Shown here: piece after piece, positions 3,372 through 42,943 of the stretch | How positions within the stretch are numbered: the first letter of the stretch is position 1 | Layout: the number at the start of each line of letters is the position of its first letter | DNA from: an uncultured Candidatus Saccharibacteria bacterium | Lineage (GTDB): Bacteria > Patescibacteriota > Doudnabacteria > UBA920 | Length of the DNA: 64,000 bases | Reading direction: 5' to 3' | NCBI GenBank assembly: GCA_964594755.1 | Contig: CAZQMO010000001.1 | Coordinates: forward strand, 169 to 64,168 | Made by a program: the position numbers and the translations under genes | The notes under the pieces: model-generated | What the model saw: only the letters and a program-made list of their open reading frames with translations | What the model was told of the DNA's origin: nothing | Databases searched by the model: none

Positions 3372-4199
3372 ATGAAAGAATATTTTTTGGAACAATTTAG
3401 GGAAAGTAAAGGGTTTATGGTTGCAACCATCATCTTTATTGCATTAAGTGCTTGGTGGGTGTCAATCTATCTTCGTTTTCTGACTGAAGGGCTAGAGAAT
3501 GATCTGTTTACAAATCTTTTGATATTATTTCCCTTATTTGGTGGTGTCGCTGGATTGTATTACGCCAAACTTTGGGGAGGTCTCAAAAGCAGATTTGGGA
3601 TGGCTATTTTTACTTTATCTTCAGGACTGTTGGCACAGTTCATTGGTACTATCTTATATAATTATTATATTTATATTTTAGGTGTCGAAGTTCCATACCC
3701 ATCAATAGGGGATGTGTTCTTTTACATAAGTGTTTTGGCATATATCGTGGGATCATATCAGCTTGCTAGAGTCCTCGGTGTGCAATTTAGCTCCCAATCA
3801 TTTACTAATAAATTAGTTGGGATATTTATCCCACTAGTTGCATTGTTGGGTTCATATTTAATTCTCTTACGTGAATATGATTTTACTACCAGTACTCCTC
3901 TGTTAATTTTTTTGGATTTTGGATGGCAAATCGGTCAAGTAATTTACATCTCTATAGCTCTTTTTGCCTTATTTATCTCGAAGAACACTTTGGGTGGTTT
4001 AATGAGAAAACCGATTATTTTATTGATCGCAGCGCTTACAGTACAGTTTATATCAGATTTTCAGTTCTCTTACCAAGTAAATAATGATACTTGGTATGTT
4101 GGTGGTTTCAATGATTATGTTTTCATGCTTTCTTTGTATTTAATGACCTTAGCGATATTCTCAATTGGCAATATCTATTACAAGATTCAAAAATCTTAA
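3372..4199 (+). CDS. polytopic integral membrane protein, unknown function
   Basis: 275 aa with roughly 8 hydrophobic helices and no recognisable motif. Confidence 0.6.
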   Translation: MKEYFLEQFRESKGFMVATIIFIALSAWWVSIYLRFLTEGLENDLFTNLLILFPLFGGVAGLYYAKLWGGLKSRFGMAIFTLSSGLLAQFIGTILYNYYIYILGVEVPYPSIGDVFFYISVLAYIVGSYQLARVLGVQFSSQSFTNKLVGIFIPLVALLGSYLILLREYDFTTSTPLLIFLDFGWQIGQVIYISIALFALFISKNTLGGLMRKPIILLIAALTVQFISDFQFSYQVNNDTWYVGGFNDYVFMLSLYLMTLAIFSIGNIYYKIQKS

Positions 4200-10815: not shown

Positions 10816-11349
10816 TCAGCCGTTAATAATTTTTTTAAGAACCGCGGCAATGGCTCGGACTTTTTGTAAACCATCAGCGCTATTTTTGAGTTGAATATTA
10901 AAATGGTCAGCCAAAGTATTGAGAGTCGGCATTTTTTTGATACCGATGTGTAACGCATAAATATAACCTAAAGACCAAATATCCACTAAGTGCCGATCAA
11001 ATTTAAACGGAGTGAGAGTTTTTTTGAACGCTGCTCGCAAAAATAGATAATTTTGCACTGCGTTACTGGCCAGCAACGGTTCGTAACCGAATGTGTTAAC
11101 AAAGTCTTTGATTACATCGTTAATCTTTTGACTACGGCGCAGGGTGTCAAAACTGATTCCTAGTTGCTCGGAGTGTTGATGTAGAGTTCCATCAAGGAAA
11201 CTAACTTTAACGTAGGAATTAAAAAAGTTTTTTTCTAACAAACTGTCTTTGTCTAATAACACTGCAGAGAGTTGAATAATATGGTCACGATCAGCGTCAT
11301 TGCCAGTTGTTTCAAGGTGGAGAACTAATAAGTCTTTAATAAGCTTCAT
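10816..11349 (-). CDS. DEDD exonuclease-like paralog with His replacing the first catalytic Asp (possibly inactive)
   Basis: LVLHLETTGND aligns to the Exo I motif D-x-E with H in place of D. It is paralogous to the adjacent gene. Confidence 0.5.
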   Translation of the reverse strand: MKLIKDLLVLHLETTGNDADRDHIIQLSAVLLDKDSLLEKNFFNSYVKVSFLDGTLHQHSEQLGISFDTLRRSQKINDVIKDFVNTFGYEPLLASNAVQNYLFLRAAFKKTLTPFKFDRHLVDIWSLGYIYALHIGIKKMPTLNTLADHFNIQLKNSADGLQKVRAIAAVLKKIING

Positions 11350-11843
11350 AGCTTTACCCCGTATTGAGGAAGAAGTTCTTTGCCACCTGTTAGTTCTTCG
11401 AATTTGTCTGAAATCAAAATGTTGTTAAGATGATCAATTTCGTGCTGCAGTACACGTGCCAAAAAAGTATCGTCGGTGATGGTAAACTTTTCCCCAGCCA
11501 GATTGTAAGCTTCCATAGTGATTTTTTTGGGTCGCTTCACTTTCCCAAATACTCCGGGAATAGATAAACAGCCTTCTTCCATTTCCGTTTGTTCTTTAGA
11601 AGATTGAGTAATTCTTGGATTAATAATTGGGAAGGCCGGTAAACCAGCTTCTTCAAGAAAGATAATGGCCATGTTAAGATTTTTTCCAACTTGAGGTGCG
11701 GCTAAACCTACGCCGTCAGCAGCTTTACAAGTTGCGAACATATCTTTAATCAAACGAAGCAAATCTTTGTCTCCGGGTAAGTTTAAGTCTTGAACTTTGG
11801 TGCGTAACACTTTGGCTGGTAGTTTTGAGATTGGGAGGATCAT
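11346..11843 (-). CDS. def: peptide deformylase
   Basis: The three Def motifs are present: GVGLAAPQVG, EGCLSIPG and HEIDHL. Confidence 0.9.
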   Translation of the reverse strand: MILPISKLPAKVLRTKVQDLNLPGDKDLLRLIKDMFATCKAADGVGLAAPQVGKNLNMAIIFLEEAGLPAFPIINPRITQSSKEQTEMEEGCLSIPGVFGKVKRPKKITMEAYNLAGEKFTITDDTFLARVLQHEIDHLNNILISDKFEELTGGKELLPQYGVKL

Positions 11844-12273: not shown

Positions 12274-13128
12274 ATGAAAAATAAACTCTTTGCAGCATTA
12301 TTATTAGGTGGTTTTGTGATCGTGGCAGTTATGGAAGGATTGCCAGAGCGTGCTACTAACTGGTTAAAAAGCGAACAAAATTGGTCGCACTTTTTTGAGA
12401 AGGTTAATTTACCACAATCACTTCCTGGACCATTACTTGGACCCTTAGATTCATCACCCCGAGACCTTACTCGTGATGGCGTCATAAATGAAACCAATCA
12501 CCAACGGGAAATTAATGGTCAATTGCCATTACGGATGAATGAGAAGCTAAATTTAGCAGCAAAGGCCAAGCTGGATGACATGTTTAGACAGCAGTACTTT
12601 GAGCATGAATCTCCAGATGGTAAAAATCCAGCAGACGTAATTTCTGCAGCTGGCTATGAATTCTTAGTGGTGGGGGAGAACCTCGCATTAGGAAACTACG
12701 AAAATGATGTGGTCTTAGTTGAGGCTTGGATGAATAGTCCAGGTCACCGCGCAAATATTGTGGACGGTAAATTTAATGAAATAGGTGTTGCAGTAGGCAA
12801 GGGAATGTATGAAGGCAAAGAGGTTTGGATGGCAGTGCAAGAGTTTGGCACGCCACTTTCCAATTGTCCTTCGCCACAAGGGACTTTAAAAGCTCAGATT
12901 GATAACAATCGATTGCAAATTTCCGCTTTAGAAGCCGAACTGGCCACCAAGAAGGAAGCCTTGGATAGCAATCGGTATCAAACTAGAAGTGAGTATAACC
13001 GTGCTGTGGACGAATATAATGAATTGGCCCGCCGACTCAATAGTTTGGTTGAGCTCACAAAAGATTTAGTAAACGAATATAATCACCAAGTTAATTCCTT
13101 TAATGTTTGTTTAGAGAAGAATGCTTAA
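12274..13128 (+). CDS. secreted CAP/SCP (PR-1-like) domain protein with C-terminal coiled coil
   Basis: Signal peptide. GENLALGNYENDVVLVEAWMNSPGHRANI is the CAP-domain signature. The C-terminal 90 aa are heptad-like. Confidence 0.65.
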   Translation: MKNKLFAALLLGGFVIVAVMEGLPERATNWLKSEQNWSHFFEKVNLPQSLPGPLLGPLDSSPRDLTRDGVINETNHQREINGQLPLRMNEKLNLAAKAKLDDMFRQQYFEHESPDGKNPADVISAAGYEFLVVGENLALGNYENDVVLVEAWMNSPGHRANIVDGKFNEIGVAVGKGMYEGKEVWMAVQEFGTPLSNCPSPQGTLKAQIDNNRLQISALEAELATKKEALDSNRYQTRSEYNRAVDEYNELARRLNSLVELTKDLVNEYNHQVNSFNVCLEKNA

Positions 13129-14443
13129 ACCTGTTACAATTGGCCCTATTAAAATTTCCGCTGTCACTCGAGCGGAATTTTTAACTCAGGTTTCACTGCG
13201 TCTTGAGCAAAATCAACAAACTTGGATCACTACTCCTTACTCAGAGTTTTTGTATGCAGCACTTCGCAGTGGGGAAGTGCGAGATATGTTAGCTAAAGCC
13301 GATATCGCTATTCCTGATGGGATTGGGATTTTTTGGGCAGAACGATTTCTGAGTAAACCACTTCGCTTACAGAGTCATATTGGTAAAATCTTGGAGTCAT
13401 GGTTGTATGTCGTGGTCACTGGAGCAAAAATATTATTAACTCCTAGTTATTTGTATAGAAAGTTACCAGAGAAAATTACTGGCGCTTCAGTGTTCGTTGA
13501 AATGGTAGCAGAAGCTCATAAGTTAGATAAATCTATTTACTTGCTTGGGAACTGGGGCGATAGTGCTAAGAAAACCGCCAACATGTTAGAGGAAAAATTT
13601 TCTGGTTTGAAAGTGGTTGGTGCTTCCAATAAATCAGCAGAAGATAAAAGCGTTTTTGCAGATTTAACTTCGGTTAAACCAGATATGTTATTTGTTGGGT
13701 TTGGGCCAATCAGACAAGAACGATGGATTTACCAAAACTTGGATTCTTTACCAGCGACAGTGATTATCGGAGTGGGTGGCACGTTTGATTATTTTTCTGG
13801 GAATCAACTCAGGCCACCGATGTGGGTTCGCGAGGTTGGTTTGGAATGGTTGTTTCGGCTGATTACCCAACCAAAACGTATCGGTAGAATTTTTCGCGCC
13901 ACGATTGGGTTGATTGTTTCTTTGGTTCGTTACAAAGTTTTTTCAACTTATCCATTTCGTAATAATGCCGTAGCAATTGCCGTCAACGCCGATAACAAAA
14001 TTTTATTATGCAAAAGGATTACTGCCCCACCCAAGAATAAACAAAGCAGAGTCGAGTTACCAAACTATTGGCAGTTTCCACAAGGAGGTCTCGATGAAGA
14101 TGAAGATATTATCACTGGAGCAAAGCGTGAACTTTATGAAGAAACTGGGATTAAGTCCGCAGAATTCTTAGGCGTCGCAAACTTTACTCACAGTTATGAA
14201 TGGCTCAACGGTGGTAGGCCGGTATTATTCAGTTCTAAAAGTTACAAAGGCCAAAAACAACAAACCGTGTTTTTTCGGTTCACTGGTAAAGATGAAGAAT
14301 TGGTTATGGATGGAATTGAATTTGAGGACCATGCTTGGTTATCTCCAGAAGAGGTAGTGGAAAGAATTGCCCCAGAGCGAAAAACCCATGCTCAGGCCGC
14401 CTTGGAAGAGTTGCAACACATCTTGAGAAATCCGCTAAAATAA
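13121..14443 (+). CDS. fusion protein: WecB/TagA/CpsF-family glycosyltransferase (N-terminal ~250 aa) + NUDIX hydrolase (C-terminal)
   Basis: WecB/TagA motifs IAIPDGIGI, VGFGPIRQERWI and IGVGGTFDYFSG. Then the Nudix box GGLDEDEDIITGAKRELYEETGI. Confidence 0.65.
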   Translation: MLKPVTIGPIKISAVTRAEFLTQVSLRLEQNQQTWITTPYSEFLYAALRSGEVRDMLAKADIAIPDGIGIFWAERFLSKPLRLQSHIGKILESWLYVVVTGAKILLTPSYLYRKLPEKITGASVFVEMVAEAHKLDKSIYLLGNWGDSAKKTANMLEEKFSGLKVVGASNKSAEDKSVFADLTSVKPDMLFVGFGPIRQERWIYQNLDSLPATVIIGVGGTFDYFSGNQLRPPMWVREVGLEWLFRLITQPKRIGRIFRATIGLIVSLVRYKVFSTYPFRNNAVAIAVNADNKILLCKRITAPPKNKQSRVELPNYWQFPQGGLDEDEDIITGAKRELYEETGIKSAEFLGVANFTHSYEWLNGGRPVLFSSKSYKGQKQQTVFFRFTGKDEELVMDGIEFEDHAWLSPEEVVERIAPERKTHAQAALEELQHILRNPLK

Positions 14444-14457
14444 GGTATATTTTAACT

Positions 14458-15966
14458 ATGTCAGAAACTGGAAAAGTGAGAACTAGATTTGCACCAAGCC
14501 CGACCGGGTTTGTTCACATTGGAAATTTTCGTACCGCTTTGTTCGCGTTTTTGTTTGCTCGACATCACGGTGGAGTAAACATTTTGCGCGTGGAGGATAC
14601 CGATCAAACCCGAAAAACTGATGGTGCGATAGAGAATATGATTAGTGTGATGGAGCGTATGGGGGTTCAGTTTGACGAGGGTGTTCAAGATCAAAACGGA
14701 AAACTGGCCGAGAAAGGCGACTATGGTCCTTATACTCAATCAGAGCGTTTAGATATTTATCAATCACACGTTCAGGATTTAATTAGCAATAACAAAGCTT
14801 ATTATTGTTTTTGTACTCCAGAGCGACTGGATGAACTTCGCAAAGAACAAACAGCATTAAAGCAGCCGCCGATGTATGATCGGTTGTGCCGCAAATTAAA
14901 TGATGAGCAGGTTCAAGCCAAGCTTCAAGAGTTTCAATCACAAAATATACGCCCTGTGGTTCGACAGGCGATTCCTCAGACAGGGGAGACGGTCGTCAAG
15001 GATTTAGTGTATGGGGATATTAAGTACGATCACAATCAACTTGATGATCAGGTGTTACTAAAAAGTGATGGTTTTCCAACTTATCATTTAGCAGTAGTGG
15101 TGGATGATCATCACATGTTGATTTCTCATGTAATCAGAGGTGAAGAGTGGATTCCTTCTACCCCGAAACACATTTTACTTTATGAGGCATTTGGTTGGGA
15201 AGCCCCACAATTTGCTCACTTACCGTTGATCTTGAATCCAGACAAAACTAAGTTGTCCAAACGCCAAGGTGATGTGGCAGTGGAAGATTATTTGAGTAAA
15301 GGTTATTTAGTAGAAGCATTGGTGAACTTTGTGGCTTTGCTTGGTTGGAACCCAAAGACTGAGCAGGAAATTTTTTCTATGGCAGAGTTAATTGCGCAGT
15401 TTGATTTAGCCAAGGTTAATAAAGCTGGGGCAGTCTTTGATGTTGCTAAACTAGATTGGATGAATGGCATATATCTTCGCAATAAATCAGACGAGGAAAT
15501 TTTAAAGTTAGTATCTCCGTTATTAGAAACCTCAGGCAGAAATTTATCTGATTATTCTCAAGACTTTTTGTTGGCTATGGTGAAGATCGAAAAAGAGCGC
15601 TTAAAGACTTTAAATCAAATTACTGATCACACTGGATTTTATTTTGCTCAACCAAACTACGATGCAAAGATTTTAGTTTGGAAAAAGGCCGATAGTACCG
15701 ATACTAAAGCAAAACTCTCTGCGGTAAAAGAATTTCTAGAAACTTGGACCGATGTCCCCGATGATTTGGAAAAAATTGAAACTTCAGTAAAAAATTGGAT
15801 AGTAGAGCAAGGCTTTGATACAGGGAGTGTACTTTGGCCACTGCGGGTAGCGTTATCTGGATTAGAAAAGAGTCCAAGTCCATTCGAGTTAATCTGGGTG
15901 CTGTCAAAAAATGGCGGCGTAGCAAACGTAATTTCTCGGCTAGATACTGCAATTAATCAACTCTAA
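14458..15966 (+). CDS. gltX: glutamyl-tRNA synthetase
   Basis: HIGH motif in RFAPSPTGFVHIGN. KLSKR motif. The start is placed at MSETGKV, since the upstream extension overlaps the preceding gene. Confidence 0.9.
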   Translation: MSETGKVRTRFAPSPTGFVHIGNFRTALFAFLFARHHGGVNILRVEDTDQTRKTDGAIENMISVMERMGVQFDEGVQDQNGKLAEKGDYGPYTQSERLDIYQSHVQDLISNNKAYYCFCTPERLDELRKEQTALKQPPMYDRLCRKLNDEQVQAKLQEFQSQNIRPVVRQAIPQTGETVVKDLVYGDIKYDHNQLDDQVLLKSDGFPTYHLAVVVDDHHMLISHVIRGEEWIPSTPKHILLYEAFGWEAPQFAHLPLILNPDKTKLSKRQGDVAVEDYLSKGYLVEALVNFVALLGWNPKTEQEIFSMAELIAQFDLAKVNKAGAVFDVAKLDWMNGIYLRNKSDEEILKLVSPLLETSGRNLSDYSQDFLLAMVKIEKERLKTLNQITDHTGFYFAQPNYDAKILVWKKADSTDTKAKLSAVKEFLETWTDVPDDLEKIETSVKNWIVEQGFDTGSVLWPLRVALSGLEKSPSPFELIWVLSKNGGVANVISRLDTAINQL

Positions 15967-15967
15967 A

Positions 15968-15998
15968 ACCCGCCTAATCTGAGCGGGTTTTTTTCTTT
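15968..15998 (+). terminator. rho-independent terminator
   Basis: aacccgcctaatctgagcgggttttttt. Confidence 0.7.
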
Positions 15999-16025
15999 GG
16001 AAATCATTAATAATGTGTTATAATC

Positions 16026-17378
16026 TTGTCGATGGAAGCTCCAGATTTCGAAACTAAAATAAAGAAAAAGATTGCCTTAATTATAAGTACTTTGGGCGTC
16101 ACTATAGCAGTAGCCGGTTTCGGCTTTTTTTACCTATGGCAGACTAGTTTTCAAGATTCAGTAATCAGTCCAGCACTCGCTCAGAGCAACGCCAATGACC
16201 GAGATCGGTTGAATCTCCGGCTCCAGCAAATTAAGAGTCAAATTAACTCGTATCAACAGCAAATTGCTCAGACCAAGAATCAAGCTGCAACTTTGCAGAA
16301 TGAGATTAGTATTTATGATAATCAAATCAAGTCTCTTGAGCTACAAATTGAAGCTAATGATACTCAGCAACAAGATACAGCTTTGCAGATTAGCGAGCTA
16401 GAAATTCAAATTGAGCGACGAGAGAAGGAGATTGATGACAATAGAAAGATTTTAGCGCAACTCATTGTGGAATTATCTAAACTAGATGATAATTCATTTT
16501 TGAAAATGGGTCTTGGTACTGATGATTTTTCTAGTTTTCTGGATCAGGTCCAATACGTACGAAATATCCAAGACCAAGTTTATGGTTTAGTGTCGCGTAT
16601 TAAAGAAATTAAGGAAAAGTTAGAAACTCAGCAACAAGATTTAAAAGTACAATTAACTAAACTGGAATCATTGCGAGAAGAATTACAGATTTCTCAAGAA
16701 AGTCTTGATCAACAGCGAAAAAATAAAGAGCAATTATTGGCACAGACCAAAGGTGTAGAGCGTAATTATCAGCAATTACTTTCTGCGAGTCGAAGCGAAC
16801 AAAGTAAGATCATGGAAGAAATTAATGATCTCGATGGTGCCGCTCGTTCCCGCGCCGGTAATAAATCGATCTCGGTGAATAAAGGGGTGCTGGGTTGGCC
16901 AATGGATGGAACTCTCACGCAAGGATATGGTAATACTGGTTTTACTTCGCTGGGGTACAACTTTCACAATGGTATTGATATCGCCGCACCAGCCGGCCAA
17001 CCCATTTACGCAGCTGCTGATGGCACAGTTGCAGCCTGTGATACAGGTGAAGCGGCTTATGGGAATTGGTGCACAATCAAACATAATATTGAAGCAGCTT
17101 CAGGAAGTCGATGTGTAGTGACTCTATACGCGCACATGCGGACTATTAAAGTCTCACGTGGTCAGACAGTTAAGAGAGGGGACTTGGTTGGTTATGAAGG
17201 CAATACCGGAAATACAACTCGTTTAATTTATGGACCAGAACGCGGTTATCATCTACATTTTACGGTCTTTGATTGTGATGGTTACAGTGTGACAGCAGGG
17301 AAGTACTCGAGTGTGTACGGTGCATATTCTGTTCCGAGTGGGGTGACTTATAACCCAATGAATTTCTTAAGTAAATAA
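16026..17378 (+). CDS. M23/LytM peptidase with long N-terminal coiled coil (EnvC-like)
   Basis: N-terminal TM, about 250 aa of heptad-rich coiled coil, then HNGIDIAAPAGQPIYAAADGTV and HLHFTV (HxH) from the M23 family. Confidence 0.8.
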   Translation: MSMEAPDFETKIKKKIALIISTLGVTIAVAGFGFFYLWQTSFQDSVISPALAQSNANDRDRLNLRLQQIKSQINSYQQQIAQTKNQAATLQNEISIYDNQIKSLELQIEANDTQQQDTALQISELEIQIERREKEIDDNRKILAQLIVELSKLDDNSFLKMGLGTDDFSSFLDQVQYVRNIQDQVYGLVSRIKEIKEKLETQQQDLKVQLTKLESLREELQISQESLDQQRKNKEQLLAQTKGVERNYQQLLSASRSEQSKIMEEINDLDGAARSRAGNKSISVNKGVLGWPMDGTLTQGYGNTGFTSLGYNFHNGIDIAAPAGQPIYAAADGTVAACDTGEAAYGNWCTIKHNIEAASGSRCVVTLYAHMRTIKVSRGQTVKRGDLVGYEGNTGNTTRLIYGPERGYHLHFTVFDCDGYSVTAGKYSSVYGAYSVPSGVTYNPMNFLSK

Positions 17379-17399: not shown

Positions 17400-18431
17400 A
17401 TGCAAAAGATTTTGCGCCGCATTGAAATAATGTTTTTGACCGGCTTATTGTTTTTTACAGTGGCTGGTTTTTTTGTGCCGAATAATGCGGCCGCGCAATT
17501 ACGCGCAGATGATCCTTCTACTTCTAGGCCCCTGCCAGTTTATAGTGGTGTCGAAGACAGTATTAAAGAGTATTTGTGTGCGCCAGGTGATAGCCAGGAT
17601 GAACAGGCCACAGCATTGACTGATTGTATCAGTAAACTCTATCGGTTCAGTATCACCGCTGGGGGAGTAGCGTTGGTGTTTTTTATAGTAATCGCAGGTT
17701 ATATTTATATAACTTCAGGAGAAGCAGGGAAGGGGAGAGCAAAGGATATCATACTTTCAGCAGTAGTTGGGATGGGTATTTTATTGGGTAGCTATGCCTT
17801 ACTAAACTTTATTAATCCAAATTTAGTAAAAATTAGGCCAATTCAACCGCCAATCTTTACAGCCACTGGTTTACCAAGTTGTGAAGCTGTCGGTTTTGGT
17901 ACAAAATGTATTACTCGTGATGGTCAGGTTAGTAATCCAGGTGGCGGGGTTCCTGGTTCTGCGAGTGAAGCGCAGTATAAAGATTTGATCAGTAAATACG
18001 CTCAGCAAAAAGGATTATCATATTGTGCTTTGTCAGCTTTGATTCAAAAGGAGTCATCCTTTATATACAATAATGTGTCTAACCCACCACCGAGTCGTGT
18101 TGATGTAAATAGTGGCTCCCCTCCATCTTATAATGTAACCTTTACTACTGGGCATGGAATTGGGTTGACTCAGGTGTATATTTATCCAGGGCAGACTTCT
18201 CGACCAGGTGGTGAGTTTGGTTTTAGTAAAGCTTTAACAGTTCAGGATTTAATCAATCCAGACACTTCTATTAGTGCTGGGGCTCATTTTTTTGGTACGC
18301 TAGTAAGAGAGCGTAGAAATAATTTAAGAGAAGCATATGATGATTATCAAGCTGGCCGTGGCGGAAATTCTGATCCTAAAACTCTAGATAAGTATATGGA
18401 TATGTATAACGCATGTCAGTTACGTAATTAG
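17400..18431 (+). CDS. secreted protein: VirB2/TrbC-like two-TM N-terminal module fused to a lytic transglycosylase (SLT) domain
   Basis: Signal peptide, Cys pair, TM1 and TM2 separated by the short basic loop TSGEAGKGRAKD, and a P-rich linker RPIQPPIFTA. SLT motifs follow: QKESSF, GIGLTQV and AYDDYQAG. Confidence 0.6.
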   Translation: MQKILRRIEIMFLTGLLFFTVAGFFVPNNAAAQLRADDPSTSRPLPVYSGVEDSIKEYLCAPGDSQDEQATALTDCISKLYRFSITAGGVALVFFIVIAGYIYITSGEAGKGRAKDIILSAVVGMGILLGSYALLNFINPNLVKIRPIQPPIFTATGLPSCEAVGFGTKCITRDGQVSNPGGGVPGSASEAQYKDLISKYAQQKGLSYCALSALIQKESSFIYNNVSNPPPSRVDVNSGSPPSYNVTFTTGHGIGLTQVYIYPGQTSRPGGEFGFSKALTVQDLINPDTSISAGAHFFGTLVRERRNNLREAYDDYQAGRGGNSDPKTLDKYMDMYNACQLRN

Positions 18432-18439
18432 GGATAACT

Positions 18440-18964
18440 ATGAGGCAATTTTTTTCACAATATAAAGTTCAGATTGTTGTGTCCGCAGCGGTATTGGGAT
18501 TCGCTGGTGTCATTATGATAGTGGTCATATTGGTTAACAGCTCGAATGAGCCACCTACAATAATTGAGCCTACAGATCCAAATCAGCTCGATTATGGATT
18601 CGTTAATAATGACCAGCTTAGCAACGAAGATAAGTATTTGATGTTGGAAGCTAAGATTGTTGTAGAGGGTTATGGTACATATTCAGCAAATGACTTACGA
18701 GGACTTTACGATGTAAAAAATAAATCTACCAGCAGTTTTGCTGTGACAGTCGATCAGCTAATAAATTTAACGGTAATACCTAGTCTAGCAACTTCCGTGA
18801 ATCCTGACACTATCCAGATTGAAAGATCATCTAACCTGGTTACAGTAAAGCTACAGGCAAATCAAAGAAATCTAACTACAAACCAAACAACACAGATCAA
18901 TTACACAGTCGAGTTTGTAAAAAATGGTCAATTTTGGCAAGTCAATAATATTACAGAACAATGA
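18440..18964 (+). CDS. hypothetical membrane-anchored protein
   Basis: N-terminal TM and then a polar domain. No motif. Confidence 0.4.
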   Translation: MRQFFSQYKVQIVVSAAVLGFAGVIMIVVILVNSSNEPPTIIEPTDPNQLDYGFVNNDQLSNEDKYLMLEAKIVVEGYGTYSANDLRGLYDVKNKSTSSFAVTVDQLINLTVIPSLATSVNPDTIQIERSSNLVTVKLQANQRNLTTNQTTQINYTVEFVKNGQFWQVNNITEQ

Positions 18965-19899
18965 AACAAAAATTGAGTGCCATTCTTTTAATACTTTGGT
19001 TCGTACCTCAAATAGCATTTGCACAGACATCAACCATTCCATTGCCTCAGTACTCGGGTGTTCAGGAAAGTATTCAGGCTTATTTGTGCACTCCAAGCGA
19101 GTCAGCTGATGGTCAGGATTTGGTGCGTTGTATCAATCGAATGTACAGATTTGGTATCACGGCTGGTGCGATAGTTTTGGTATTAATGATTGTTGTGGCT
19201 GGTTATATATATATCACCAGTGGTGAAACTGGTAAGACCAGAGCAAAAAGTATTGTGATGAATAGCCTGGTCGGAATGGGTATCTTAATTGGCAGTTATG
19301 CCTTGCTTTATTTCATTAATCCAAACCTAACAACGTTTAGGCCAATTCAACCGCCGATATTTACTGCTGATAATCTACCAAGCTGTGCTGATTTGGGAAT
19401 AACTCAAGATAATGATTGTGCGATAACTTCGGATCCTGCAGAAGCAATTGATACGAGTCCAAGCGGGGGCGGTGGTGCATATGCTGATTGTAAAGGTGGA
19501 ATCGTTGCGATTTCGGGAATACCAAGAGCAGGCTCAGCGACTCAGATTTGTCAGGAACTACTTTCTAAAATGCAACCACTCTTAACACAGTTTAAAACTC
19601 AAGCCCCAGGGTACTACTTCGCTATCTCTTCAACTATTAGAAATGGTGGTGCGGAGAGCCGGTGTCATTATGGCGGTAACAGTAAAAGTGGTAATTGCGC
19701 TGATACTGTGCTTCGAACTAATGCTGGAGCGAAAGTGCCTGGTAGTAACGCTGCTTGGGGTACATTATGTAGGATCTTACTGGGAGCAGGGTTATCACTT
19801 GCCAATGAAACTGGTTCCGCTCACCAAGGATGCCGTAACCCAGCAAGTTATAAGTACACCAATGGAGCCCATTTCCATGTTTATGTACCTGCTAATTAA
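18961..19899 (+). CDS. paralog of 17400 gene: same VirB2/TrbC-like N-terminal module fused to a Cys-rich, M15-like (D-Ala-D-Ala carboxypeptidase/VanY-like) peptidase domain
   Basis: The N-terminal ~140 aa are about 65% identical to the 17400 protein, including YITSGE(A/T)GK.RAK and RPIQPPIFTA. The C-terminus has SRCHYGG..GNCADT and GAHFHVYV, resembling the M15 S.H..G.A.D ... H motifs. Confidence 0.5.
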   Translation: MKQKLSAILLILWFVPQIAFAQTSTIPLPQYSGVQESIQAYLCTPSESADGQDLVRCINRMYRFGITAGAIVLVLMIVVAGYIYITSGETGKTRAKSIVMNSLVGMGILIGSYALLYFINPNLTTFRPIQPPIFTADNLPSCADLGITQDNDCAITSDPAEAIDTSPSGGGGAYADCKGGIVAISGIPRAGSATQICQELLSKMQPLLTQFKTQAPGYYFAISSTIRNGGAESRCHYGGNSKSGNCADTVLRTNAGAKVPGSNAAWGTLCRILLGAGLSLANETGSAHQGCRNPASYKYTNGAHFHVYVPAN

Positions 19900-19935
19900 T
19901 TTTTCACCTCTAGTAGGGGACAGTAGCGCTCTAAA

Positions 19936-19965
19936 AATCAAAACCGCCTTAGGGCGGTTTTTGAT
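19936..19965 (+). terminator. rho-independent terminator
   Basis: aaaaccgccttagggcggtttttg. Confidence 0.7.
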
Positions 19966-20119
19966 ATTACGACTTCCCTACTGGCTCGTAGGGGAGAGGT
20001 AGGGATCTTATCTAAAAACTTTTATGAATGTTAATCAATTTGTAGTTTAAGCACAGAGCAGGTCTACATCAAGAGAAGTACAAAACTTTTTAAATTAGTC
20101 GAACGATATGTCGTAGAAA

Positions 20120-20151
20120 CTTATTTTACGACTCAAGAGTCGTAAAATAAG
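20120..20151. repeat. 32-nt palindrome cttattttacgactc-aa-gagtcgtaaaataag
   Basis: Exact 15-bp arms within a 520-bp ORF-free region. Confidence 0.5.
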
Positions 20152-20160
20152 ATAAACTTG

Positions 20161-20183
20161 ATGCGACATAATATATGTCGCAT
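20161..20183. repeat. 23-nt palindrome atgcgacat-aatat-atgtcgcat
   Basis: Exact 9-bp arms adjacent to the previous palindrome. Confidence 0.5.
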
Positions 20184-20391
20184 AAGATACATTGTGCGAC
20201 GCGGTATCACTCTCCAGAGCATATCTCCCCTGTGGCTATTATGCCCTAGCCTGTCTGACTGTATTTAATATTTGAAATTTTCTTTTTGTATTCTCTGTGT
20301 TTGATTGTATATTCTTTCTTAAATACCACTCCCTTAATCATTGTATATACTTTTGACTAGAACGGTCGTCACCAATTAAAAGTAAGTGAAA

Positions 20392-20418
20392 AAGAACTAG
20401 GGAGTAGTTCCTTTTTAG
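20392..20418 (-). terminator. bidirectional terminator hairpin gaactagggagtagttc flanked by T-runs
   Basis: Hairpin immediately after the stop of the minus-strand cysteine desulfurase gene. Confidence 0.5.
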
Positions 20419-20426
20419 TGAAGGTA

Positions 20427-21656
20427 TTAGATGTCCTGTTTAGTGTCAGCAAGCATCTTAATCGTAGATTTGAGTGCCTTGATGAATGCCTTAACCTGAG
20501 CCGGTGTTGTTGATGCATTTAAACTTAATCTGATGGTTGATTTGGCTAGATCTGGCTTAACTTCCATCGCGACTAAAACGTGTGATGGATCGGTTGAACC
20601 AGTTGTACACGCACTACCAGTTGCAACCACAAACCCGGCCGCGTCTAGGTACAACATTAGAGCTTCACCCTCAACTCCATTAACAGAAAAATTGATGGTA
20701 CCTGGCAGTTTAGTCAGCGAAAAGTTTTCTTCTTTAGAGTTGAGTTTGGGATTCTTTGGACCGTTGATGGTTACACTTTTAATTTTTCTTAATTCAGATT
20801 CTAGTTGTGATTGTAAACTGTGCAATTTTTTTACATTCGCAGATTTATGCTTCTGTGAATCTGCTAAGGCAGCAGCGAAACCAACGATGGCTGATGTGTT
20901 TTCTGTACCGCTACGCAAACCCCGTTCTTGGCCACCGCCGTAAATTATCGGTTCGAGTTTAACTCCACTGCGAACGTATAGCATCCCCGACCCTTTCGGC
21001 CCATGAATTTTGCTACCGTTCAAAGTTAGTAAATCAACTTTCAGTTTTTGCACATCCAAATCTAAGTTGCCACCAGCTTGGCACGCATCAGAATGAAACA
21101 GGATTGGCGCGAGAGTTTTTTGATTGCGTTTGCGGTTCAGTCCTGCGATTAATGAGCCGATCTGACGAATTGGTTGGATAGTCCCAACTTCATTGTTGGC
21201 GTACATTACAGACACAAGCATTGTGTTGGGCTTAACAAGCTTGATAATGTGGTTTGGATCAACTAAGCCATGTTTATCAACTGGTAGATAATCAACCTGC
21301 CAACCATAACCTTTGAGTGCTTTCACACATTCTAATACTGCTTCGTGTTCAATGGCCGAGACAATGATATGTCCAAGCTTTTGATAATTACGAGCATAGC
21401 TCTTTGCCACCCCTTGGATAGCTAAGTTAATGCTTTCTGTTCCCCCACTGGTGAAAATAATTTCAGAAGCTTTAGCTCCGATTACTTCTGCAACAGATTT
21501 TCTGGCTTGTTCAATGGCCTGACGTGATTTTTGCCCAGGTTCGTGCAAACTACTAGGATTGCCAAAAAAGCCCATCTGGAGGGGTTTTATGGCCTTTAGG
21601 ACAGCATTGCTAGGCTGTGTGGCAGCTGCATTATCAAAATATACCTTGTTTTTCAC
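20427..21656 (-). CDS. cysteine desulfurase (class V aminotransferase, NifS/IscS family)
   Basis: FTSGGTESINLAIQG, a PLP-Lys region SKIHGPKGSGMLYV, and a C-terminal active-site Cys loop GSACTTGS. Confidence 0.85.
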   Translation of the reverse strand: MKNKVYFDNAAATQPSNAVLKAIKPLQMGFFGNPSSLHEPGQKSRQAIEQARKSVAEVIGAKASEIIFTSGGTESINLAIQGVAKSYARNYQKLGHIIVSAIEHEAVLECVKALKGYGWQVDYLPVDKHGLVDPNHIIKLVKPNTMLVSVMYANNEVGTIQPIRQIGSLIAGLNRKRNQKTLAPILFHSDACQAGGNLDLDVQKLKVDLLTLNGSKIHGPKGSGMLYVRSGVKLEPIIYGGGQERGLRSGTENTSAIVGFAAALADSQKHKSANVKKLHSLQSQLESELRKIKSVTINGPKNPKLNSKEENFSLTKLPGTINFSVNGVEGEALMLYLDAAGFVVATGSACTTGSTDPSHVLVAMEVKPDLAKSTIRLSLNASTTPAQVKAFIKALKSTIKMLADTKQDI

Positions 21657-26216: not shown

Positions 26217-27134
26217 TTAAATTTGCAGATATTTGCGCATAGCCAGCAAACTGGAAATGGCGCTGAGTACGAAGGCTATACATAGTTGGATCAGAACCAC
26301 TAAGCCAAAAGTCTGCACGTCACCATTAAAAATGTTAGCACCTGGAGTTAAATAATTACTGATTCTTGGCAACATTTGGAAGTAAATTGGGAAAACCAAG
26401 GCACTGGTAATTGCCGAAGCGATGATGCTGTAAGCAAAAGCCTCTACTAAGAATGGTCCGCGGATGTACCAGTTAGTAGCACCAACCAGACGCATGATTT
26501 CAACTTCTTCGCGGCGATTATAAATAGTTAAGGCAATCGTGTTAAAGATCACTAAAATTGCTATCAAACAGAATACAACCATTAAGATTGAACCAAACGT
26601 TACAATGAACTTTAGTAACGAGTTGAGTCGTTCAATAATCACACGGTTATCTTCAAAGTTTACTTCGTCGATTAAGTCGCGATAAGAACTGTTCTCGAGC
26701 ATCTGGGCAATGGCAGGATAATCTTCTAGTCTAAACGCTTTAATCTGCAAGGTCGAAGGAAATGGGTTATCAGTTAATTCTTCTAATGAGTTTAGAATTT
26801 GTTCATCACCTTGATGATTTTGTTCAAAATTTCGACGAGCATCATCACTAGAGACATAATCAACTGAGCGGATACGGCTATCTGTTTGGAGTTCATCGCG
26901 GATTACTAAAATTCTAGCTTCGGAAACATCACTCTTAAAGTAAGTACTGATATCAACGCGTTCTTGAATTGACTGCACACTATAGCTAGTGATTATAAAT
27001 AACAAACTCATCACCGATAAGATTATTAGGGTGATTGTCATTATTAATGTTGAAGCAGTGGCTAACCAAAGATTGCGACGCAGATTGGTTAACCCGCTTT
27101 TGATGATGCGATAAAGCTGGATCAGAGATGGCAT
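26217..27134 (-). CDS. ftsX: cell division permease FtsX
   Basis: 4-TM FtsX topology with a large periplasmic loop. Follows ftsE. The start is chosen at the internal Met to avoid overlap with ftsE. Confidence 0.8.
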   Translation of the reverse strand: MPSLIQLYRIIKSGLTNLRRNLWLATASTLIMTITLIILSVMSLLFIITSYSVQSIQERVDISTYFKSDVSEARILVIRDELQTDSRIRSVDYVSSDDARRNFEQNHQGDEQILNSLEELTDNPFPSTLQIKAFRLEDYPAIAQMLENSSYRDLIDEVNFEDNRVIIERLNSLLKFIVTFGSILMVVFCLIAILVIFNTIALTIYNRREEVEIMRLVGATNWYIRGPFLVEAFAYSIIASAITSALVFPIYFQMLPRISNYLTPGANIFNGDVQTFGLVVLIQLCIAFVLSAISSLLAMRKYLQI

Positions 27135-27138
27135 AAGA

Positions 27139-27816
27139 TTATAATTTGTACTTTCCTTTTTCTTGTTCCATGGTAACCTGACCACCTTCAATGGTTATAA
27201 CTCGTTTTTTGATTTTATTAACTAAGTCTGACGCGTGAGTTGCGAGTAATACGGTTGTACCTAGTTTGTTGATTTTTAGGAGTAAGTCAATAACTTCCGC
27301 AGCATTGATTTCGTCTAGGTTCCCGGTCGGTTCGTCTGCTAAAAGTAAGACAGGGCGATGCGCCAAAGACCGCGCAATGGCTACGCGTTGCTTTTCACCA
27401 CCACTCATCTCATGAGGAAAATTGTGCATCTTGTGCGACAGTCCGACCAACTCCAAAATACGAGGTACGTCTTTGTTAATTTGTTCCTTACGGTGTCCGG
27501 AAACTTCCATAGCAAATGCCACGTTTTCGAAAGCCGTGCGGCGTGGCAGTAATTTGATGTCTTGAAAGACCACACCAATCTTGCGTCTTAAGTACGGCAA
27601 ATCAGCTTTGCGAATTTTACTCATATCAATATCATCAATCAGAATCTGACCATCATCGAGTTCTTCTTCGCCAACTAGCATTTTGAGCATTGTGCTCTTC
27701 CCTGCCCCACTCATTCCGACCACAGAAATAAATTCCCCCTGTTTGATATGGAGGTTGATGTTATTTAATGCTTTGTGATTTCCGTAATATTTAGTAACTT
27801 TTTTGAATTCAATCAT
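27139..27816 (-). CDS. ftsE: cell division ATP-binding protein FtsE
   Basis: Walker A GMSGAGKST, ABC signature LSGGEKQR and Walker B LLLADEPT. Confidence 0.9.
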   Translation of the reverse strand: MIEFKKVTKYYGNHKALNNINLHIKQGEFISVVGMSGAGKSTMLKMLVGEEELDDGQILIDDIDMSKIRKADLPYLRRKIGVVFQDIKLLPRRTAFENVAFAMEVSGHRKEQINKDVPRILELVGLSHKMHNFPHEMSGGEKQRVAIARSLAHRPVLLLADEPTGNLDEINAAEVIDLLLKINKLGTTVLLATHASDLVNKIKKRVITIEGGQVTMEQEKGKYKL

Positions 27817-41566: not shown

Positions 41567-42943
41567 TTAGTAGGTTTTACATTCAATTTGATTACAGAGA
41601 TATCCAGTAGTGCCTGGTTCTGGGTTTTGCAAAGCTGCTCTGATTGTAAAGCTTTCAAAATCTGGACCGACCTCGTAAAGATAATCTTGTTTACTAACAG
41701 GATCGACAGGCATGGTCACAATATATCTAGGAATGAGCGCAGTCTTGAGGTTATCAGTTGGCGGAAAAACGTACTGTTTGTCGCTGGCAGGATCAAGTTG
41801 AGTATTGGAGTAAACCAGCAAAGCCTGTTGTAAGTTTTCTAAATCTAATTTTCGTTGGTCGTCATAAACTTTGGTATTTTCTTTGGCAGCATCTTCTTCT
41901 GCTGTTTTTGCAAAATATTTAATCAGTTGATTCTGTGTTTCACTGTAATAGCTCAAAGTGAAATCAGTGTTGTTATTTGTGGACTGATAGCCGTAGACGT
42001 AAGGTTGAATATTTATAGGGTCGTTATAGTTGGTAGCCACGGTGTTGTAGGAGCGAATCATATCTGACATGGCTATAAAGTCATTTGTGGCAGGAAAACT
42101 TTTTTTATCATCGCGATATTTGAGTAAAGCAGCACCAACTTTTTTGATTGTGGCTTGACGTTGGCTATCTCGATCTAGCTTTGCTTCTGGTGACAAGTCT
42201 AAATCTGCTGGTAAGGCGGGTTGATTTGGGTCAGTAAACTCATACAATTGAAAAGCCAATGGCCCAAGTGATGATAAGGTTGGTTGGTGCAGCCCAAATT
42301 GTTTAATCTTTGACTTAATTTCAAAACTACGTTCGTTGGTGTAAGGTTGATTAGTCGAAATATCGTAACCACCTTTAACAAAATCTAAATCGGAGTAAGA
42401 ACCGTCTCGGTATGTTCTTGAGAGGAGTGGCTCGGTGTAAAAGATATTAACCTCGTCACCATCAGCAATACCATCTGAGTCAGAATCCGGATTGTTGGGG
42501 TCGGTACCTGAGTTGAACTCGGCAAGGTTATCTAAACCATCTCGGTCAGGATCTGCTTTATCACCACATAAAGATAGTTCAGTACAGGTTTCACTGCCAA
42601 AAAACTTGGCCAACCATTCCGCTGACGTGGTCACTTCTGGAGTGGCTTCTTGCACAATTTGCTCAGTTGCCGAAGCGCCATTGTTTTGTAAAACATCCTC
42701 ATCTCCGGAATTGATAAGCCACATAGCTCCATACGCAAGTCCACCCAACACAACAACTAAACTAACAATTAAGGCGATGATTTTCCATACCGACCGGTTT
42801 TTAGCTGACTTTTGCTCTGGTATTGAAATAGGCGCAGGAGGTTGAGTCGCAACTGGTTGCGGATTAGTTGTAACCTTGGGTTTGGTAACCTGCCCTCCAG
42901 TTACTTCAGGCATAACGTTGTAAAAAGTTTTATCTTGGGCCAT
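41567..42943 (-). CDS. membrane-anchored surface protein with thrombospondin-type-3-like Ca-binding Asp repeats
   Basis: TM after about 50 aa. DPDRDGLDNLAEFNSGTDPNNPDSDSDGIADGDE. C-terminal globular domain with a single Cys pair. Confidence 0.45.
   Translation of the reverse strand: MAQDKTFYNVMPEVTGGQVTKPKVTTNPQPVATQPPAPISIPEQKSAKNRSVWKIIALIVSLVVVLGGLAYGAMWLINSGDEDVLQNNGASATEQIVQEATPEVTTSAEWLAKFFGSETCTELSLCGDKADPDRDGLDNLAEFNSGTDPNNPDSDSDGIADGDEVNIFYTEPLLSRTYRDGSYSDLDFVKGGYDISTNQPYTNERSFEIKSKIKQFGLHQPTLSSLGPLAFQLYEFTDPNQPALPADLDLSPEAKLDRDSQRQATIKKVGAALLKYRDDKKSFPATNDFIAMSDMIRSYNTVATNYNDPINIQPYVYGYQSTNNNTDFTLSYYSETQNQLIKYFAKTAEEDAAKENTKVYDDQRKLDLENLQQALLVYSNTQLDPASDKQYVFPPTDNLKTALIPRYIVTMPVDPVSKQDYLYEVGPDFESFTIRAALQNPEPGTTGYLCNQIECKTY

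Follow-up and report, generated by a model that had tools for sequence, protein, structure and literature searches.

Organization of the operon

The window analyzed in this study is a stretch of 64 kb (64,000 nucleotides, nt) from an uncultured Candidatus Saccharibacteria bacterium (GTDB lineage Patescibacteriota; Doudnabacteria; UBA920; assembly GCA_964594755.1, contig CAZQMO010000001.1), and it carries four consecutive genes encoding an M23 peptidase with a coiled coil, a fusion protein (protein A), a small membrane protein and a second fusion protein (protein B). These genes form a chromosomally fixed, co-transcribed operon, in which the M23 gene, the gene of protein A and the small gene are separated by 21 nt and 8 nt, while the start codon of protein B overlaps the stop codon of the small gene by 4 nt. 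Proteins A and B share an N-terminal module (N-module) related to the pilins of type IV secretion systems (T4SS), which is followed in each of them by a different wall-active domain, and the small protein is predicted to resemble VirB8. Judging from the sequences, the operon most likely reuses type IV secretion parts as carriers of peptidoglycan hydrolases. Its features are listed below (aa, amino acids; ORF, open reading frame; TM, transmembrane).

15997..16024, + strand: promoter-like site directly 5' of the M23 gene, TTGGAA-16-TATAAT with TG (10/12 in a consensus scan, a pattern match only)
16026..17378, + strand: coiled-coil M23 gene, 450 aa, first gene of the operon
17400-18431, + strand: protein A ORF, 343 aa, N-module plus SLT domain
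17400..17495, + strand: predicted signal peptide of protein A, putative cleavage after residue 32, between AAA and Q
17496..17915, + strand: N-module of protein A (PF18895, 25.0 bits, residues 73-130), with Cys pair, TM1, basic loop, TM2, PIQPPIF linker and second Cys pair
17964..18431, + strand: C-terminal domain of protein A, SLT-type lytic transglycosylase (PF01464, E=2.9e-7, residues 196-327)
18440..18964, + strand: small bitopic protein, 174 aa, N-terminal TM helix plus predicted VirB8-like NTF2 domain
18961-19899, + strand: protein B ORF, 312 aa, N-module plus predicted LAS-fold domain
18961..19023, + strand: predicted signal peptide of protein B, putative cleavage after residue 21, between AFA and Q
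19024..19419, + strand: N-module of protein B (PF18895, 20.7 bits; faint TrbC match)
19471..19899, + strand: C-terminal domain of protein B, Cys-rich, predicted LAS fold (Hedgehog/DD-peptidase, M15-like), putative zinc peptidase
19940..19961, no strand assigned: G+C-rich hairpin with A and T runs at its flanks, likely a bidirectional terminator closing the operon

The number of promoter-like sites that the consensus scan found across the region is not above the shuffled expectation. The terminator scan called the hairpin at 19940-19961 on the minus strand, and the plus strand reads the same stem followed by TTTTTGAT.

The pilin-like module shared by proteins A and B

A first-pass annotation, made by a model from the letters alone, had proposed that proteins A and B share their N-terminal part at roughly 65% identity. 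This value is reproduced over the mature core, from the motif PxYxGV to the linker (65%), and BLASTP gives 88/151 identities (58%, E=3e-55), with nothing significant past residue ~174 of protein A or ~150 of protein B. All of the module elements named in that annotation are present: a signal peptide, a Cys pair before TM1 (C43/C57 in protein B), two helices (hydrophobic stretches 60-90 and 97-120 of protein B, with the loop TSGETGKTRAK between them), the basic loop YITSGE(A/T)GK(G/T)RAK and the linker RPIQPPIFTA. The module is longer than had been supposed, as a second conserved Cys pair follows the linker in the pattern LPSCxxxGxxxxC (C142/C153 in protein B). Its invariant columns, in the numbering of protein B, are Y31, C43, C57, G81, Y82, Y84, G88, K92, K96, Q130, P131, P132, F134, C142 and C153, and the most conserved segment is the cytoplasmic loop GYxYITxGExGKxKAK.

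The T4SS_pilin model (PF18895) is matched by all 31 of the aligned relatives (E<=0.01, best 8.4e-9), and the TrbC/VirB2 model (PF04956) by six of the 31 (best 7.8e-7). Among more distant relatives, PF18895 is found in 80/125 representatives (best 9.8e-28), and NCBIfam adds a weak match to a pilin-like protein of a Mycoplasma integrative and conjugative element. PDB sequence searches with protein B and with the N-module profile gave chance-level matches only. From the profile matches of these relatives, the N-module probably belongs to the T4SS_pilin/TrbC-VirB2 superfamily, which agrees with the pilin-like topology suggested at the outset. Both proteins show the pilin hallmark of two hydrophobic helices behind a signal peptide, connected by a short loop that carries positive charge; another hallmark, a small stand-alone subunit (mature length ~70-120 aa), is absent, since the module is part of fusions of 343 and 312 aa. 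With the signal peptide cleaved, the hairpin would lie with its N- and C-termini outside and the K/R-rich loop inside, which is the topology of VirB2. The two proteins had been called secreted effectors; this topology instead predicts membrane-tethered enzymes.

Predicted VirB2-like pilins and pilin arrays have been described in Patescibacteria (PF18895; PMC12102498, PMC10633639), and the module resembles these and other VirB2/TrbC pilins in its signal peptide, its two helices, its short basic loop and its matches to PF18895 and PF04956. Unlike them, it forms the N-terminal domain of proteins of 310-540 aa that end in a wall hydrolase, it has additional conserved Cys pairs and the PIQPPIF linker, and its genes are not near virB4.

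A two-helix hairpin with a charged turn is also the topology of class II holins, and the first-pass annotation had raised the possibility of an ordinary holin. SLT, M15 and M23 domains are common in endolysins as well, and the M23 protein of the operon matches many PHROG endolysin families, so the operon could in principle be the remnant of a phage lysis cassette in which a holin or signal-anchor was fused to endolysins. Such an origin is extremely improbable and was rejected: the N-module matches no PHROG holin family, a tblastn search against 50,697 phage records finds nothing, a cleavable signal peptide places both termini outside, which is not the topology of class II holins, the neighborhood is free of phage genes, and the clade shows vertical conservation of the locus.

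No third copy of the module was found in the window by tblastn; the next match, at 35.9-36.1 kb (E=0.17), was considered as a possible copy and turned out to be NusG. Between genomes, orthologous modules are 56-87% identical, whereas paralogous modules within one genome are 62-76% identical; as paralogues are as alike as orthologues, gene conversion among the modules is suggested. As a separate observation, residues ~25-45 of protein B (19033-19095, LPxYxGVxxSIxxYLC) resemble the start of the amidase domain of S. aureus Atl (PDB 4knk) at chance level (E ~1-2).

The enzyme domains of proteins A and B

Protein A carries an SLT domain (PF01464), which scores 30.5 bits against a cut-off of 21.3. 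The motifs K-E-S, H-x-I-G-L-x-Q and A-Y are invariant across six orthologues, and protein A itself reads QKESS, GIGLTQ and AYDDYQAG, so the catalytic residues are kept on alignment. A PDB sequence search with this domain gave no match. From its profile score and intact active-site motifs, the domain is a predicted SLT (GH23) glycan cutter, as the earlier assignment to lytic transglycosylases had it. Protein A contains six cysteines, and the small protein contains none.

The C-terminal domain of protein B had been described as a Cys-rich domain with M15-like His/Asp motifs. It has no Pfam, NCBIfam or PDB sequence match, the Pfam M15 and M74 models included, and a profile of the domain matches PDB entries at chance level only, so the M15 assignment finds no counterpart in sequence. 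An AlphaFold2 model built from 24 homologues is confident (predicted local distance difference test, pLDDT, >90 in the core) and has the characteristic LAS/M15-type fold. H236, D248, H306 and E283 are invariant, and H304 is present in at least 90% of the sequences; in the model, D248 lies on a strand and the H-x-H motif on the last strand, as in MepA-type enzymes. The domain is thus modelled as M15-like at the level of its fold and of a candidate zinc site (H/D/HxH), and that part of the description stands.

LAS metallopeptidases include MepA (M74), VanX/VanY (M15), phage L-Ala-D-Glu peptidases, the Streptomyces DD-carboxypeptidase and the Hedgehog N-domain. Protein B has in common with them the H...D...HxH arrangement, in which HxH occupies the last strand just as it does in MepA and M15A, and other genomes carry a bona fide Peptidase_M15_4 domain at the position of protein B in the locus. 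It differs from them in the missing Pfam M15 match, in the spacing of its putative ligands and in having six conserved cysteines. A comparison by hhalign of the B-type domain with its Peptidase_M15_4 positional counterparts aligned only the shared linker, and a common ancestry of the two beyond the fold, being unproven, was dropped.

The small VirB8-like protein

The protein encoded between A and B had been noted as a small TM protein, and its 174 aa indeed contain one TM helix, at the N-terminus. A search for sequence relatives found 11, and a model built from 11 sequences (pLDDT 83.5) consists of the TM helix followed by an alpha+beta domain of the NTF2 type. With Foldseek, TcpC, TraH, TrwG and TraE are among the top matches, mixed with other NTF2 domains, and wall enzymes such as PBP2a and Bd1075 contain NTF2 domains too. 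The model therefore points to a bitopic protein, in which the extracytoplasmic domain is NTF2-like and closest to VirB8 structures. A weak match to the IseA inhibitor (E=0.049) was dropped in view of the much stronger VirB8/NTF2 structural result. The VirB8-like nature of this protein, like the fixed core-genome locus and the cassette swapping described below, had been missed in the first-pass annotation.

The small gene always stands directly 3' of the glycosidase-type fusion, even where the gene order is inverted, and loci with a peptidase-type fusion alone lack it. The small proteins of the different loci are of two kinds, and a comparison of the two aligns the TM helix only, with no further homology detected. 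Members of the VirB8 family (VirB8, TrwG, TraE, DotI, PrgL, TraM, TcpC) are likewise bitopic, have an extracytoplasmic NTF2-like domain and are encoded beside VirB1-like and VirB2-like genes. In contrast to them, the small protein is without a sequence-model match, evolves fast, is replaced along with the glycosidase domain and has no VirB4, VirB6 or VirB10 nearby, and in some genomes a small TM protein without detectable homology takes its place.

Related loci and the domain repertoire

A search with protein B yielded 65 proteins, in which this N-module is fused to the B-type domain (including long forms of ~510 aa), to Peptidase_M15_4, to M23 plus a VanX-type M15 domain, to CHAP, to Amidase_2 and to SLT, and further scans of the relatives added GDSL/SGNH, a weak glucosaminidase match, VanY, SLT_3 and a C39-like domain. 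At least eight kinds of wall-active domain therefore occur on one module, and the suggestion that the module might belong to a polymorphic family proved correct. A module profile run against 1.84 billion representative proteins gave 21,926 matches at E<=1e-3, 1,056 at E<=1e-10 and 121 at E<=1e-30; among the best 137 representatives, 125/137 are at least 280 aa long (median 359), which indicates that this module subfamily is almost always a fusion.

A scan of one genome per GTDB species gave 29 loci, with the titles Candidatus Doudnabacteria, Patescibacteria group and 'uncultured Candidatus Saccharibacteria'. Related loci in other genomes are referred to here as L001, L003, L004, L006, L007, L009, L010, L018-L021 and L026, L010 being the nearest relative of the window. 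In relatives with readable context, the order is CAP - wecG/NUDIX - gltX - coiled-coil M23 - fusion 1 - small gene - (DsbA) - fusion 2 (- fusion 3) - iscS ... L27 - pyrG - L9 - ftsX - ftsE. The succession of gltX, the coiled-coil M23 gene, one to three fusion genes and iscS recurs in every locus whose flanks are long enough, even where module identity is as low as 33-40%, and the position from gltX to iscS is held in ~35 genomes of the class Doudnabacteria.

Several variants of the fusion proteins were also observed. Where the glycosidase fusion has 14-16 cysteines, the locus contains a membrane-anchored DsbA/thioredoxin-like gene (L001 9219-9965, L003 7610-8362, L004 9258-10004, L018-L021, L026), and this gene is absent from the window locus. 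Long forms stack enzymes on one pilin module, namely M23 and a VanX-type M15 domain, joined by a C39-like peptidase in forms of 620-800 aa (P0074, P0077, P0078, P0082; L003 8346-9977; L007 10001-11560); P0077 carries one more N-terminal domain ahead of the module, and a B-type and a further M15-like domain behind it. The distant relatives P0139 (618 aa) and P0142 (612 aa) have four pilin-type hairpins in tandem and then one SLT domain, while in P0172 (891 aa) three hairpins are interleaved with large Cys-rich domains, and all three are predicted to be concatenated 'poly-pilins'.

Exchange of the enzyme domains

Loci L001 and L004 are 90-98% identical in DNA over 20 kb, except for the C-terminal domain of fusion 1 together with the small gene, and the C-terminal domain of fusion 2, which cannot be aligned. 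The breakpoints, at residues ~179 of fusion 1 and ~138 of fusion 2, coincide with the ends of the pilin modules. The lysozyme-like domain of fusion 1 is a different one in each of the two genomes, and fusion 2 carries a B-type LAS domain in one of them and Peptidase_M15_4 in the other. Similarly, neighboring proteins of the window and L010 are 78-98% identical, compared with 58% for the C-terminal domain of protein A and 59% for the small protein, and DNA identity falls to 0.44-0.57 exactly at this domain and the small gene. The small gene is exchanged along with the glycosidase domain. We infer that the enzyme domains are exchangeable cassettes, which recombine at the end of the conserved pilin module.

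Polymorphic toxin/immunity loci include contact-dependent inhibition systems, Rhs proteins and the effectors of type VI and type VII secretion systems, and swappable surface-protein cassettes are known as well, such as the S-layer cassette of Clostridioides. The present locus resembles these in having a conserved N-terminal trafficking or anchoring part, a variable C-terminal enzyme, breakpoints at the junction and, for the glycosidase fusion, a co-varying small gene downstream, whose protective role would be putative. It differs from toxin/immunity loci in that the peptidase fusions have no partner gene and in that the locus is core and single-copy rather than accessory; toxicity and immunity are putative here.

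These features could reflect contact-dependent attack by an armed pilus, in which the N-modules would be true pilin subunits polymerized by a VirB4 encoded elsewhere into a VirB2-type filament or channel tip, the hydrolases would open the wall of a host or prey, and the small protein would be an immunity protein or inhibitor of the glycosidase. The homology of the module to pilins, with the cytoplasmic loop as its most conserved part, is consistent with this explanation, and so are the conserved N-terminus, hypervariable C-terminus and junction breakpoints, the replacement of the glycosidase domain and the small gene as a unit, and the low identity of these two to the nearest relative (58-59%, versus 78-98% for the neighbors). 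According to PMC10633639 and PMC12857230, predicted pilins are essential in Ca. Southlakia epibionticum, another Patescibacterium, in which they and the T4SS are required for epibiotic growth. VirB4 is also present in one genome of the clade: GCA_003446815.1, which carries locus L006, appears in a published table under the GTDB class Doudnabacteria and is marked there as VirB4-positive, and a T4SS ATPase can thus coexist with the locus while being encoded elsewhere. Nevertheless, the locus never adjoins T4SS genes, the peptidase fusions lack a co-varying immunity-like gene, and the universal presence and synteny of the locus resemble those of a core function. A globular domain of 170-200 aa on every subunit would, in our view, be hard to fit into the tight packing of a pilus, and surface-protein cassettes also turn over under phage pressure though they are not effectors. 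We consider an armed pilus rather unlikely. The more specific proposal, that an epibiont cuts the wall of its host with an enzymatically armed pilus built by a VirB4 encoded elsewhere, that the cassettes track the wall chemistry of the host, and that the VirB8-like protein serves as a cognate adaptor or immunity factor for the glycosidase, is unlikely.

The coiled-coil M23 protein and FtsEX

The M23 endopeptidase with a coiled coil that had been reported to precede protein A contains a TM helix (residues 14-38), coiled-coil-type matches over residues 54-270 (~220 aa) and a Peptidase_M23 domain at residues 313-415 (E=3.4e-24). Its catalytic motifs are intact (HNGID at 314, HLH at 409), and the protein, with its EnvC/PcsB-like architecture, should be catalytically competent. 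Its match to the NCBIfam EnvC model is weak (26.7 bits versus a cut-off of 270). In the related loci the M23 gene always lies immediately 5' of the pilin-fusion genes. The genes ftsX and ftsE are located at 26217-27816 (minus strand), 6-8 kb downstream and 9 kb from the M23 gene, with which they share a conserved synteny block, and the ftsX orthologues carry the FtsX_ECD domain.

EnvC, PcsB, CwlO and RipC are coiled-coil hydrolases or activators controlled by FtsEX. The M23 protein is built like them, with a long coiled coil between a TM or signal segment and a hydrolase domain at the C-terminus, and the presence of ftsE and ftsX in the same synteny block suggests that it may be an EnvC/PcsB-like partner of FtsEX. 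In contrast to E. coli EnvC, its M23 catalytic residues are intact; the FtsEX partnership itself is putative.

The operon might accordingly be read as a set of plain housekeeping autolysins, in which the hairpin would be a mere anchor of T4SS ancestry, the FtsEX-driven M23 protein and the other enzymes would serve growth or daughter separation with no present link to secretion, and the small NTF2 protein would be a generic regulator. The constant place of the locus in the core genome, with gltX and iscS on either side and ftsX and ftsE in the same synteny block, is in line with such a role, as is the good conservation of the M23 protein, which is 93% identical to that of L010. Tethering would restrict the reach of the enzymes to the cell's own wall, and the NTF2 domains of PBP2a and Bd1075 show that the fold of the small protein is also at home in wall enzymes. 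However, the replacement of one enzyme type by another between genomes whose flanks are 90-98% identical would be unusual for essential autolysins, VirB2-like, VirB8-like and VirB1-like parts stand together in one operon, and the loop of the hairpin is conserved beyond the needs of anchoring alone. We consider this explanation improbable.

Proposed function of the operon

We propose that the operon is a T4SS-derived, membrane-tethered wall-opening toolkit acting at the envelope of its producer, and we assign a probability of about one half to this reading. After Sec export and cleavage of the signal peptide, each VirB2-like hairpin would span the membrane with its two ends facing outward and its basic loop on the cytoplasmic side, so that the Cys-rich enzyme domains would be held on the outer face of the membrane by the short, stiff, Pro-rich linker; the exposed parts are probably stabilized by disulfides, and many relatives have a DsbA gene in the locus. 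The glycan cutter A, the putative peptide cutter B and the M23 endopeptidase might together make a local opening in the sacculus. The VirB8-like protein would pair specifically with the glycosidase and position or restrain it, by analogy with the reported contact between VirB1 and VirB8. The default target would be the producer's own wall, either to make room for envelope-spanning machines, such as T4SS and pili, or for cell separation alongside FtsEX.

A comparable task is known from conjugation in monoderm bacteria, where, as summarized in PMC12102498, VirB1-like multi-domain hydrolases open the wall for the T4SS. These enzymes (PrgK of pCF10, TraG of pIP501, CwlT, TcpG) are also membrane-anchored and combine glycosidase (SLT) with peptidase (CHAP, LytM/M23) activities. 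However, they have a single N-terminal TM anchor, are encoded inside a transfer operon and unite the activities in one polypeptide, whereas the activities here are placed on separate carriers with a pilin-type hairpin; domain swapping at a fixed chromosomal locus is not known for them.

Several observations weigh against the proposed toolkit. VirB4, VirB6 and VirD4, for which a search elsewhere in the genome had been suggested, are absent from the large ORFs of the window and from the 10 kb around ~35 related loci, which leaves a working link to a T4SS unproven. The PF18895 scores of the two window modules (25.0 bits in A, 20.7 bits in B) lie just under the gathering score of 26.6, and the small protein has no match to the Pfam VirB8 model at E<=1, NTF2 folds being common. 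In protein B, the His-to-Asp spacer of the candidate zinc site, known from sequence and model, is 11 residues, versus the 3-6 usual in LAS enzymes. Protein B and the other peptidase fusions are without a co-varying partner gene. Moreover, rapid cassette turnover fits inter-organism conflict better than a purely housekeeping role.

Much of bacterial diversity consists of Patescibacteria, and those in culture grow attached to other bacteria; in the only genetically tractable one, the T4SS and its predicted pilins are essential. The role of the T4SS in these bacteria, and the way in which the wall of either partner is breached, are the questions on which the operon bears, and it might reveal the means by which these bacteria open a cell wall. 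According to the survey in PMC12102498, VirB8 homologues are few and nearly all in the class ABY1, and VirB1 homologues are mostly not associated with virB4. Sequence surveys of these genomes have largely missed the VirB1 and VirB8 functions, and the operon offers candidates for both. Surveys that count PF18895 matches as pilins may count hydrolase fusions among them. Furthermore, cassette exchange at a fixed locus is a natural experiment, in which enzyme type can be set against host or habitat.

Term searches found no mention of pilin-hydrolase fusions in the searched text of the Patescibacterial T4SS papers PMC12102498 and PMC10633639 or of the T4SS nomenclature review PMC12857230. In the open-access literature, no description of a pilin-hydrolase fusion, of a fixed gltX-iscS locus or of the cassette exchange was found, which is not proof of novelty, and domain-architecture databases may already display such fusions.

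Surroundings of the operon

The remainder of the window consists of housekeeping genes, including fmt, def, gltX, iscS, pyrG, ftsEX, a prfA-like gene, gyrB, pheS, ATP synthase genes and lepA, among others. An Rfam scan of the window found five tRNAs and nothing else. About 530 nt between protein B and iscS (19900-20427) are non-coding and contain, besides the terminator hairpin, more inverted repeats at ~20090-20190, with no Rfam match. In L010, an unrelated cytoplasmic gene of 210 aa (11080-11712) lies downstream of protein B, of which no remnant is seen in the window.

Upstream of gltX, at 12274-13128 (plus strand), the window encodes a secreted CAP/SCP-domain protein with a C-terminal coiled coil, and this gene is kept there within the same synteny block. 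Two ORFs, at 41567-42943 (minus strand, 457 aa) and 3372-4199 (plus strand, 275 aa), have no Pfam match at E<=1e-3. In L009, a reverse-transcriptase (RVT_1) gene at 17422-18474 is inserted between L27 and pyrG in the otherwise conserved block. Finally, the gltX ORF as listed (14335-15966, plus strand) begins with TTG and overlaps the upstream gene by ~100 nt; its orthologues are 495-505 aa long, which suggests that the real start is near 14458.

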